From positions 992,001 through 1,056,000 of the forward strand of contig OZ244922.1 of NCBI GenBank assembly GCA_965221905.1: 64,000 bases of DNA, in the 5' to 3' direction. The notes below the pieces were generated by a model. The model searched no databases. It was given only the letters and a program-made list of their open reading frames with translations, and had not been told where the DNA came from. The DNA comes from Chloroflexota bacterium (GTDB taxonomy: Bacteria; Chloroflexota; UBA11872; VXOZ01). Positions within the stretch are counted from its first letter, which is position 1; each line of letters starts with the position of its first letter. A program made the position numbers and the translations under genes. Positions 18,588 through 56,420 of this stretch are shown here, in pieces.

Positions 18588-19373
18588 ATGCCAATACAGC
18601 TATCTGTGCGCCATGTGCTCCACGAACCGAATCCGCCGCACCTGCCGTATCGGGAAGAGCACTTCGGCTACGTGCACCTTCCGGTAAGTATTCCGCCGGA
18701 GCAGGCGGCGCTGGTGCTGGTGGACTGCTGGGACCAAATCATCGTCGAGAGCTTTCAGGAGCGCGCCGAACGGATTTGCGAGACGACGATCCGCCCGGTA
18801 TTGGAGGCGTCGCGGTCGGTTGGCATGACGGTAGTTCACGCACCGTCGCCGCCGGTGGCTGAGAAGTTTCGCCAGTTCCGGCCGCCGGGTGCGGCGGACG
18901 GGGAAGCGCCGGTAATATCAGACAGGCAGGATTGGCCTCCCCCCGAATTCGCTCAACGCCAAGGGGAATGGGCGCACCTACAGGCCCGGCGCAGCGGCCT
19001 GCACCAGGAGCAACTCGACCGCATCGACCGTGACCGCTCCATCCATCCGGCGGTGTTGCCGCAGTCAGGCGACTACGTCATAGCCACCGGCGATCAACTC
19101 CACCGTCTCTGCCGCGAGCGCGGCATTCTCTACCTCATCTACGTGGGTTTTGCCACCAATATCTGCGTGCCGGACCGCGATTACGGCATGCGCGCCATGC
19201 GCGATCGCGGCTATGCGCTGGTGCTGCTGCGTGACGCCACCACCGGCGTCGAGGCTGGCGACACATACCCGATACTTGCAGCCACTAGTGTGATGATCCA
19301 TCAATTTGAGTTGCGGGACATCGCGGGGACGATAACGTCCGATGCGTTCTTGGCTGCCATCGAGGATTTGTGA
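18588..19373 (+). CDS. isochorismatase/cysteine hydrolase family protein
   Basis: ALVLVDCW, VVHAPS, YVGFATNICV and LLRDATT motifs. Confidence 0.85.
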   Translation: MPIQLSVRHVLHEPNPPHLPYREEHFGYVHLPVSIPPEQAALVLVDCWDQIIVESFQERAERICETTIRPVLEASRSVGMTVVHAPSPPVAEKFRQFRPPGAADGEAPVISDRQDWPPPEFAQRQGEWAHLQARRSGLHQEQLDRIDRDRSIHPAVLPQSGDYVIATGDQLHRLCRERGILYLIYVGFATNICVPDRDYGMRAMRDRGYALVLLRDATTGVEAGDTYPILAATSVMIHQFELRDIAGTITSDAFLAAIEDL

Positions 19374-19390
19374 AAAGGATATCCATTCAT

Positions 19391-19443
19391 CCTTCGACAG
19401 GCTCAGGACGAACGGATAAAGACTGTTTTGACGGAGTATTCGT
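19391..19443. repeat. REP-like repeat cttcgacaggctcaggacgaacgg (intact copy of the IS110 target)
   Basis: Nearly identical to the IS-interrupted copy (~19486-19500 plus 20653-20688); related copies at ~32042, ~32350 and ~56362-56420. Confidence 0.9.
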
Positions 19444-19515
19444 ACTTGGTTTCCCTAAGGGGGTGTAGGTCAGTATCCTTACATCCTTCGACAGGCTCAG
19501 AAACTGTCTTGGGTG

Positions 19516-20469
<954 letters not shown>

Positions 20470-20479
20470 CTATGGCTGG

Positions 20480-20636
20480 CGCTCCCATGCAGTCCCTGCC
20501 TTACGGATACGGACTTCGTGTCCCGGTAACTGTTCGGGCTCTGGGGGAGCTCGGCAGGTGTGGCGACCACTCTGAGCCACGGTCTGCCAGACCTAGGACG
20601 AACCGGTCTGCCACGCCTGCTCCCATTCTATCTCCC
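20480..20636 (-). ncRNA. IS110 bridge RNA (target-binding and donor-binding loops); ends approximate
   Basis: Minus strand: GTTCGTCCT (20603-20595), hairpin GGTCT-GGC-AGACC, GGCTCAG (20578-20572) inside a closing stem; then ACAGTTAC (20533-20526), hairpin GGAC..GTCC, CGTAAG (20505-20500). Confidence 0.85.
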
Positions 20637-20778
20637 TTTTCCAAGATATAAGGACGAACGGATAAAGACTGTTTCGACGGAGTATTCGTTCTTCCGTTTG
20701 TGATGAGCACTTCGACAAGCTCAGCGCAGGCTTGACGAACCATGAACGGCGATTGCCCTAGAGCTTCCCACATGCGTT

Positions 20779-21702
20779 CTAAGATGCAGCACTTTCCAGC
20801 CAGCGCACGAATCCCTCCGAGCACCAGTACGCCGGGTCACTCTCCGCCAGCGCGATCCATTCGTCTACAACCGGTCTAATGCGCATGTAGCGCAAGCGGG
20901 CGGAACCGATCGTGCCGTAGCGCAGCAAGCCCTTTTCCGCGAAGAGTTCTTCCGCGATCAGGCGCTTGTCGGTGCCGATGCCGGCCCAGATGCCTGGGCG
21001 CGTCCAGCCGCGCACCTGCGCGAGCAGGGCCTCACGCCGGTCGGGCGCGGCGCGCGCCAGCGCCCGGTGGGCGAGGTGCGTTTCGACAAAGTGCACCATG
21101 GTCAGGCGCTGGCAGTTGACGCCGATAAGACAGTAGAAGACGTTCCAGTCGTAGAGCCGCTGCCAAGGGCTTTCTGCGGCGAACGCGCCAGGGCCCCAAG
21201 GACTCTCACGCAGTCCCGCTCTAGCGTGATGCGCGGTGAGTGCTGCGGCCCGCGCTCCGATGGCGGCCACCGAGTGGGTGTAGTGGTTGCTGCGCTGCGC
21301 TTCCGGTCGTTGGCGGAAGGTTTCCGGTATCAAGCCGCAGTACGTGGGTGTAGTTGCGATGTCCCAGAAGTCCCACACGCGGCGTTTCTCGCGCTCCTTG
21401 CGCCACTGGCTCAGCGTCGGCACGGCAACGGTCCCGGCAGGACCCACCGCGTCTAGAAAGCCGTCGATCACGGCCTCCGCGCCGCCTTCCACAGTTCCCA
21501 TGCTGCTCAATGAGCTATGGAACATCGCGGTATCGCCTTGGCGAAGGCCAACTTCGCGCAGCGCGGCGGCAATCGCTGCCCGCGTGACCCGAACTGACGG
21601 ATCGCCCGGCTCGTGGTCCATGTAGCCCCCGGCGGTTGCCTGCACCTCTACGACAGCCTTTAGCCGTTGGGCGGCGCGCTCTGCGCTATCCCTTGACCCC
21701 AC
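20779..21702 (-). CDS. AAC(3)/YokD-like N-acetyltransferase family protein
   Basis: MFHSSLSSMG, GTVAVPT, GLIPETFR, RSNHYTHSVAAIG and TMVHFVE motifs. Confidence 0.85.
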   Translation of the reverse strand: MGSRDSAERAAQRLKAVVEVQATAGGYMDHEPGDPSVRVTRAAIAAALREVGLRQGDTAMFHSSLSSMGTVEGGAEAVIDGFLDAVGPAGTVAVPTLSQWRKEREKRRVWDFWDIATTPTYCGLIPETFRQRPEAQRSNHYTHSVAAIGARAAALTAHHARAGLRESPWGPGAFAAESPWQRLYDWNVFYCLIGVNCQRLTMVHFVETHLAHRALARAAPDRREALLAQVRGWTRPGIWAGIGTDKRLIAEELFAEKGLLRYGTIGSARLRYMRIRPVVDEWIALAESDPAYWCSEGFVRWLESAAS

Positions 21703-31915: not shown

Positions 31916-32108
31916 TACGCATCACACTGTTGGCGCTGGTTATTTGGGGCTAATCACTGCTGGAGAAGTAACTGCTTGCAGCGCTGCGGCAGTATTGTGA
32001 AAGTGTAGGGGAATCATCCTAGTGTTCAGTATCCGTTCATGCTTCGACAGGCTCAGCACGAACGGATACTTGGCCTCCGGCGGTCTCAATCTCAATCATC
32101 TTTGCGAG

Positions 32109-56361: not shown

Positions 56362-56420
56362 CCGTTCGCCCTGAGCTTGTCGAAGGGTCGTTCATGCTTC
56401 GACAGGCTCAGCACGAACGG
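56362..56420. repeat. inverted pair of cttcgacaggctcag REP-like repeats
   Basis: ccgttcgccctgagcttgtcgaag ... cttcgacaggctcagcacgaacgg. Confidence 0.85.

Follow-up and report, generated by a model that had tools for sequence, protein, structure and literature searches.

An IS621-kind insertion sequence in a Chloroflexota genome, very probably complete and recently active, with a predicted guide RNA that spells its target

Described bridge-RNA systems and the layout of the Chloroflexota element

In the excerpts of PMC11208160 and PMC11208158, the left end (LE) of the E. coli element IS621 encodes, upstream of the recombinase, a two-loop RNA with left and right target guides (LTG and RTG) and left and right donor guides (LDG and RDG). 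Every guide includes the CT core, the LTG reads in top-strand sense and the RTG is the reverse complement. Handshake nucleotides lie directly 3' of the core-binding AG, and a promoter forms at the junction of the right end (RE) with LE. Excerpted passages of the same papers give nine non-core programmable target positions in all, with longer RTGs in some orthologues (PMC11208158 / PMC11208160). ISPpu10 and ISPpu9 of Pseudomonas putida are described as inserting in repeated extragenic palindromes or stem-loops (bioRxiv 10.64898/2026.03.19.712850, PMC12288879), and in the excerpt of Siddiquee et al. 2024 (PMC11187229) the IS1111 group, with its seekRNA, combines a transposase of the DEDD superfamily with RNA-guided target choice. 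Thousands of RNA-target pairs, targeting of REPs and hairpins (ISPpu9, ISPpu10) and handshake guides are already known.

The element described here lies on the minus strand of the window, the whole 64,000-nucleotide stretch of Chloroflexota DNA that was analysed. It is very probably a complete, recently active IS110-type element of the IS621 kind, with a guide RNA that spells its target (Table 1). It shares with IS621 the gene order, the predicted two-loop RNA with its guides and handshake positions and the predicted junction promoter, together with the catalytic set of DEDD residues plus serine. The first-pass annotation had proposed an intact, naturally programmed IS110 element with a bridge RNA, and every sequence-level feature of IS621-type systems that was checked supports this proposal. 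The anatomy, copies, target sites, covariation and homology of the element are direct observations. It is a clear example of a known bridge-RNA recombinase system and no new mechanism.

Several details differ from the described systems. Compared with the nine programmable positions reported for IS621, the window RTG offers five non-core positions; RE extends merely 17 nt past the stop codon, with a -35 box that overlaps the stop, and the host belongs to the uncultured Chloroflexota. ISPpu10 and ISPpu9 likewise target extragenic palindromes; here the CT core ends the 5' arm of an 11-bp stem. The repeat family, by contrast, is unrelated in sequence. The layout of IS1111 elements with seekRNA (a short LE, the RNA in a long RE downstream, long subterminal inverted repeats) was considered and is absent. 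Because LE is 199 nt long, with the RNA upstream, and RE is 17 nt, the element belongs to the IS110 group.

Table 1. Observed and predicted features of the element and its target, in window coordinates
Feature	Coordinates	Strand	Remarks
Whole IS110-group insertion sequence	19499..20650	-	1,152 bp with one CT core counted; ends from six genomic copies
Recombinase ORF, 311 aa: RuvC-like DEDD domain, coiled coil, Tnp domain	19516..20451	-	
Bridge RNA structured core, about 135 nt: target-binding loop domain, then donor-binding loop domain (predicted)	20486..20620	-	Covariance model
Left target guide (LTG) GUUCGUCCU, core-binding CU included (predicted)	20595..20603	-	Equals left flank 20659-20651, 9/9
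Right target guide (RTG) GGCUCAG, core-binding AG included (predicted)	20572..20578	-	Reverse complement of CT+GAGCC, 7/7
Target-loop handshake guide AG (predicted)	20570..20571	-	A would pair with donor position 7 (T) after top-strand exchange
Left donor guide (LDG) ACAGUUAC (predicted)	20526..20533	-	Equals RE end ACAGTTTC save position 7
Right donor guide (RDG) CGUAAG (predicted)	20500..20505	-	GUAAG pairs with CTTAT (core + LE start), one G·T wobble
Donor-loop handshake guide G (predicted)	20499..20499	-	Pairs with target position 7 (C)
-10 box TATCTT, LE positions 3-8, of the predicted circle-junction promoter	20643..20648	-	
-35 box TTGACA in RE (predicted)	19514..19519	-	Overlaps recombinase TGA stop (19518-19516)
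Left half of interrupted target, GTTCGTC + core CT	20651..20659	-	
Right half of interrupted target, GAGCC	19494..19498	-	Second CT core copy at 19500-19499
Unoccupied exact 14-nt target GTTCGTCCTGAGCC	19400..19413	-	Neighbouring REP-like palindrome, 86 nt downstream of RE

The boundaries of the element are the exact similarity limits of its six genomic copies and are also marked by LE and RE motifs conserved in relatives. Read on the minus strand, LE starts with TATATCTT at 20650 and RE ends with ACAGTTTCT at 19499; LE measures 199 nt, and RE ends 17 nt past the TGA stop codon. The left host flank terminates in CCGTTCGTCCT (20659-20651), and the right host flank is GAGCC (19498-19494). The CT core that the first-pass annotation had claimed is found at both junctions (20652-20651 and 19500-19499), and the same holds for all six genomic copies. 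The element lies between an aminoglycoside 3-N-acetyltransferase-family gene at 20779-21702 on the minus strand (PF02522, 2.5e-43) and an isochorismatase-family gene at 18588-19373 on the plus strand (PF00857). The intergenic spacer around it contains two REP copies, and read-through from the upstream gene could transcribe the RNA of the window copy.

The recombinase is encoded by the sole long sense ORF of the element (19516-20451), which is preceded by AGGAGG. It matches PF01548 (2.7e-21) and PF02371 (1.7e-19) above cut-off and, over residues 4-305, the PDB entries of ISCro4 (9t56, E 1.6e-44) and IS621 (8wt6, E 2.4e-42), a full-length homology to both. ISCro4, or IS622 (PDB 9t56; excerpted in bioRxiv 10.1101/2025.05.14.653916), is the best structural match and has the same domain order and catalytic motifs; its PDB chain has 341 residues, compared with 311 aa here. 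Residues D8, E52, D94, D97 and S232, followed by G233, are invariant in a 16-sequence family alignment and align with the IDV, EAT, KTDxxDA and SG motifs of IS621 and ISCro4. A recombinase that joins DEDD and Tnp domains and carries a catalytic serine is characteristic of IS621-type elements. The first-pass annotation had presented a compact 311-aa enzyme as a possible new tool: the length is right, but the enzyme is just slightly smaller than IS621, with its reported 326 aa (PMC11208158), and close relatives have 311-322 aa. The novelty was likewise overstated, as analyses of this sort exist for a very large number of IS110 elements (5,511 ncRNA-target pairs, as reported in PMC11208160).

The predicted bridge RNA and its guides

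As in IS621-type systems, the long LE upstream of the recombinase is predicted to contain a two-loop non-coding RNA. A structure of 25 pairs in four helices was evaluated on 51 distinct left ends, in which 96.4% of cells are paired versus a shuffled mean of 87.6%. Compensatory changes on both sides occur in 17 of the 25 pairs, none of 500 shuffles reaches any of five structure measures, and slid-partner controls are 32-46% paired. In the RNAalifold consensus of the 51 left ends, the stems around the target loop and the donor hairpin are recovered, and the strands that hold the guides stay unpaired.

A covariance model (R1) was built from 46 relatives, leaving out the window, its three nearest relatives (L007, L010, L011) and one misaligned row (L055). 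R1 matches the window over its full length at 20620-20486 on the minus strand (93.8 bits, E 5.2e-19), with no other match below E 0.85 across the 64 kb. Rfam contains no family for bridge RNAs; on the bridge-RNA strand its scan accordingly gave no such match, and a further match, ilvB-OMG, stands at chance level (E 0.8). The first-pass annotation had placed the RNA at 20480-20636, which brackets the structured core found by the covariance model, and had proposed a fold and a covariance-model alignment as checks. The alignment, made with a model that had left the window out, bears the proposal out at the 93.8 bits given above. The fold is mixed: the consensus keeps the guides unpaired, but the single-sequence energy is ordinary (z -1.44; 20 of 200 shuffles fold equally well), and in the MFE fold some bases of the two target guides pair weakly with each other. 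Single-sequence fold energy is not informative alone, so covariation was used instead.

The target loop is enclosed by a long stem, GCAGGCGUGGC (20620-20610) with GCCACACCUGC (20564-20554), and by a GACC/GGUC stem; the hairpin GGUC-UGGCA-GACC stands between the LTG and RTG strands. The minus strand reads GCGTGGC-A-GACC-G-GTTCGTCCT-A-GGTCTGGCAGACC-GT-GGCTCAG-AGT-GGTC-GCCACAC, exactly as first transcribed. The two guide matches claimed with it, for a reconstituted target GTTCGTC-CT-GAGCC, are confirmed: GTTCGTCCT equals the left flank at 9/9 positions, and GGCTCAG is the exact reverse complement of CTGAGCC (7/7). The LTG and RTG words occur once each in the whole element. Among 200,000 shuffles of the 199-nt left end, the 9-mer appears in 42, the 7-mer in 4,111 and both in none, so the paired matches are not expected by chance. 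Target guides that match the element's own flanks are a further mark of IS621-type systems. Because the family signal is weak at the two outermost LTG positions, the 9/9 match of the window may overstate the functional guide length.

The donor domain follows the target loop and comprises outer stems GCUCCC/GGGAGC and GCCC/GGG, with an inner hairpin between two loop strands. The LDG strand has its counterpart in the RE end ACAGTTT-CT, and the RDG strand in the LE start CT-TATAT. A second loop had been said to resemble ACAGTTT-CT-TATAT, and it indeed fits the RE-LE junction apart from a single mismatch and a single G·U pair. The DNA word of the LDG, ACAGTTAC (20533-20526), is the same as the RE end ACAGTTTCT in positions 1-6 and in position 8; position 7 is a mismatch, with A in the guide and T in the donor top strand (RE base at 19501). 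On the other side, LE base 2 faces its RDG base as A-U in 4 of 51 elements and as G-C in 47, without exception. The mismatch at LDG position 7 is stable in the window subfamily, which consists of the window element and its three nearest relatives (4/51 elements), and in this subfamily that donor base has a complementary handshake nucleotide. LD position 7 is described as mismatch-tolerant in the excerpt of Durrant et al. (PMC11208160).

Handshake guides, a concept introduced with IS621 (PMC11208158, in excerpt), can be recognised in the same family. Donor position 7 and the nucleotide 3' of the AG of the RTG were compared in 51 elements and are T-A in 4, G-C in 44 and A-T in 1, with one G-A mismatch and one unknown. 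A Watson-Crick handshake pair at this position is therefore present in 49 of 50 scorable elements, through three pair types. Target position 7 and its donor-loop nucleotide form C-G in 46, T-G in 3 and T-A in 2 of the 51 elements. Both donor-guide complementarity and handshake guides, features of IS621-type systems, are thus found here.

Genomic copies, the REP-like target and relatives with other guides

Six copies of the element are present in the genome (3.52 Mb, one contig); five have identical bodies, and the sixth departs from them by 1 nt in 1,152. Each copy retains the RNA (93.7-93.8 bits) and an open frame of 317 codons, and all six sit between CCGTTCG[T/C]CCT and GAGCCTGTCGAAGG. Target position 6 is T in four copies and C in two, and this C would face a guide U as a U·G wobble. 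A seventh, distant IS110-type fragment with a DEDD match (37.9 bits) and two in-frame TGA codons lies elsewhere in the genome (G000:C1:352624-352932).

The target site lies inside a REP-like palindrome, with 220 genomic copies of GAGCYTGTCGAAG. The consensus arms of 11 bp are CCGTTCGYSCT and AGGRYGAACGG, and the CT core forms the last two bases of the 5' arm. The genome has 10 free target sites that are exact 14-mers; accepting either T or C at position 6 raises the number to 61, and accepting C or T as the final base as well raises it to 103. The palindrome occurs in the window at 19383-19425 (minus strand), 32050-32063 and 56405-56418, with no Rfam match in the stretch scanned. The same repeat also flanks related elements in other Chloroflexota and Dehalococcoidia MAGs, and the elements of a Thermodesulfobacteriota MAG have a variant of this repeat at their flanks. 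In the sister genomes G005 and G004, the coding flanks are conserved and a search for an orthologous empty site gave no clean one, because the sister intergenic spacer is unrelated and lacks the REP pair. Uninterrupted paralogous REP copies served as the empty-site reference.

Relatives of the element are numerous. A protein search returned 8,000 matches among 8,000 scored candidates, the best 98% and the next 82% identical, and the few named protein relatives are IS110 family transposases or transposases from Dehalococcoidia. Scanning species-representative genomes revealed 557 encoding loci, of which 80 with 58-82% identity were kept; their MAG titles name Chloroflexota, Dehalococcoidia, Nitrospira, Methylomirabilota, Thermodesulfobacteriota, Gemmatimonadota, Acidobacteriota and a cyanobacterium. 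Conserved motifs mark both ends (LE T[A/G]TATCTT, RE ACAGTT[T/G]CT), and the DNA outside differs widely. The universal CT at these ends is partly circular, because the regular-expression end patterns required CT.

A recognisable LE end is present in 62 of the 80 loci. The other 18 lack the pattern and were excluded from the guide counts (L008, L009, L015, L022, L025, L027, L029, L030, L032, L033, L040, L051, L052, L072, L077, L079, L083 and L086). Where two LE candidates existed (L018, L036), the one nearer the ORF was taken, and 12 duplicate LEs were collapsed. For exact matches between flank and guide, L047, L061 and L080 were left out because the RE or the flank was missing or the flank contained N; the column-wise comparison dropped L047, L055, L061 and L080, the target loop of L055 being divergent and misaligned.

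Among the resulting 48 distinct guide/flank combinations, the different 5-mers number 30 on the left and 31 on the right. The five core-adjacent nucleotides occur exactly in the element's own loop in 26 of 48 cases on the left and 29 of 48 on the right, versus 105 and 87 of 2,256 cross-pairs, a control that is inflated because many loci share the REP target. At four or more of the five positions, the match extends to 40 of 48 on the left and 42 of 48 on the right. Column by column, the five non-core positions of the right guide match their own flank in 87-94% of 47 loci, compared with 24-38% of cross-pairs, and the AG that binds the core never varies. On the left side, agreement at positions -3 to -7 is 64-96%, compared with 35-84% for cross-pairs, and positions -8 and -9 are barely above the control (40% versus 32% and 28% versus 25%), with one-base alignment shifts blurring the left side.

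Closer relatives give concrete examples. One sister element from the same genus pairs RTG AGCUCAG with CT-GAGCT, and another pairs RTG GGGAGAG with CT-CTCCC; as read from their guides and flanks, these elements show apparent natural retargeting. In the same-genus genome G006, a sister element with 77-78% identity is present in at least 16 copies (example L092), and its right guide AGCUCAG and flank CT-GAGCT correspond to the other common REP loop variant. A same-genus sister species also carries a copy (L089, G005:C1:264776-265956) that is 100% identical over 1,181 nt, at a site reading CCGTTCGCCCT on the left and GAGCC on the right. The chromosomal flanks of the window locus are 91-98% identical between the window genome and this sister genome, and the identity of the copy suggests recent transfer between species or very recent activity.

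Some loci have unusual ends. In L008 and L009, from one MAG, GAGACAG[C/T]CTC... replaces the TATATC left end about 30 nt upstream of the RNA and resembles an RE end; other copies in that MAG (L010, L042) have a normal end and a REP flank. The left ends of L008 and L009 could be a tandem or aberrant recombination product. Eight right ends (L027, L029, L033, L052, L077, L079, L083, L086) read ACACAGTTGCT and then GAACAGTTAC, a word like that of the LDG region, and the pattern search found no usual LE motif in these eight loci.

Proposed mechanism, alternative readings and meaning

Since all sequence-level features of an IS621-type system are found, the mechanism given here is that of IS621, adopted by homology and covariation; chemistry, circle formation and transcription are carried over from the IS621 work by analogy. 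The element would excise as a circle, and the joining of RE to LE would create a sigma-70 promoter, TTGACA-17-TATCTT. This promoter would transcribe a bridge RNA of about 135-160 nt and the recombinase mRNA. The RNA would present two internal loops, the donor loop holding the RE-LE junction ACAGTTT-CT-TATAT through ACAGUUAC and GUAAG. Recombinase dimers on each loop would assemble into a tetramer, in which Ser232 with the DEDD site may cut beside the CT core. Strand exchange would be aided by the handshake of A20571 with donor T7 and G20499 with target C7, and the circle would be inserted. The natural target is the junction of 5' stem arm and loop in the REP-like palindrome, of which the genome offers about 220.

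The predicted promoter is present solely in the computed RE-LE junction. In silico, 43 of 50 elements have such a promoter at the circle junction and 0 of 50 have one at the integrated left junction (L047 was left out of this comparison), so that a promoter rebuilt across the circle junction, another IS621-type feature, is found at this level. In 51 sequences, no change occurs at LE positions 1 and 3-6, and conservation at positions 2, 7 and 8 is at least 90%. Transcription would presumably start at about 20636, 7 nt past the -10 box by the spacing rule. A scan of the integrated window locus for promoters and terminators gave no sigma-70-like site and no terminator, and the plus strand of the locus likewise yielded no promoter-like site in the scan. 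These results agree with the promoter reported to be reconstituted in IS110 circles (PMC11208160, in excerpt) and with the weak expression described as the normal state of integrated IS621 (PMC13626964, in excerpt).

The lack of a promoter-like site in the integrated state is also what a sequence-intact but immobile element would display, one whose recent burst has ended or that depends on a host factor, its guide anatomy being a fossil. Ten exact free targets stand unoccupied, one just 86 nt away, which fits the same reading. However, weak expression after integration is the reported norm for IS621 (PMC13626964, in excerpt), a single nucleotide of 1,152 in one copy is the sole difference among the six, and all of them keep open frames and full RNA scores. 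A 100% identical copy also sits in a sister species whose flanks at the window locus are 91-98% identical. Immobility is accordingly judged improbable, and a recently active element remains the preferred reading.

Comparison with Rfam points to a related locus in Xanthomonas. The model RF02234 (sX15) matches the window at 20474-20629 on the plus strand with 43.9 bits, antisense to the recombinase and the bridge RNA. The window RNA is not assigned to sX15, as this score is below the 55-bit gathering threshold and the match is on the opposite strand. In turn, R1 matches the sX15 locus on Xanthomonas plasmid pXCV183 over its full length (L087 1891-2025, minus strand, equal to NC_007507 116390-116524; 61.5 bits, E 3.4e-13). 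This match falls on the asX7 strand, and the published sX15 and the Rfam model occupy the opposite one. The locus is a truncated IS110 element with about 13 transposase codons left; a 98-aa ORF beside sX15 matches no Pfam family, and tblastn of the window recombinase against the locus gave no meaningful match. RF02234 sX15 thus appears, from these alignments, to be the reverse complement of an IS110-group bridge RNA. The two transcripts, sX15 and asX7, are reported as a Northern-validated sRNA pair (Schmidtke et al. 2011, PMC3300014, in excerpt), and the literature matches listed for them contain no link to bridge RNAs.

This homology would also suit a different role for the structured left end, namely a leader or antisense-regulated control of the recombinase, like sX15/asX7, with no part in DNA choice. 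The opposite-strand match (43.9 bits, gathering score 55) at 20474-20629 and the reported Northern signals on both strands of the homologous Xanthomonas locus (PMC3300014, in excerpt) speak for it. Such a leader, however, would not lead loop nucleotides to covary with the host flanks or with the ends of the element itself, and the plus strand here has no promoter-like site. An antisense RNA could, moreover, coexist with a guide role instead of replacing it. A pure control function is therefore very improbable, and the structured left end is still best read as a bridge RNA. That the guide-flank identity is a chance resemblance or captured host sequence is scarcely credible: the words are short (9 and 7 nt), but none of 200,000 shuffles contains both, and relatives with other flanks have other loop words that match those flanks.

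A broader reading of the clade is also conceivable, though unlikely. The clade may be a natural retargeting series (at least 30 left and at least 31 right words among 48 combinations) in which a fixed A·A mismatch at LDG position 7, with the handshake kept, could bias strand exchange and so insertion versus excision, and an sX15-type antisense RNA could add a control layer. If the mismatch bias or the antisense layer were true, this compact enzyme would be a useful comparison system for tuning directionality, with five right-target and five to seven left-target programmable non-core positions. The apparent identity of sX15/asX7 as the antisense/sense pair of a bridge RNA may help database curation, and it invites one to ask whether antisense transcripts control bridge RNAs.

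This example adds a well-documented natural member from uncultured Chloroflexota to the bridge-recombinase family and leaves the understanding of the mechanism unchanged. For further study it supplies a compact enzyme of 311 aa, a natural target of 14 nt and a donor, both defined, and dozens of relatives whose guides differ. These could be used to screen orthologues and to study guide length, tolerance of wobbles and the handshake pairs.
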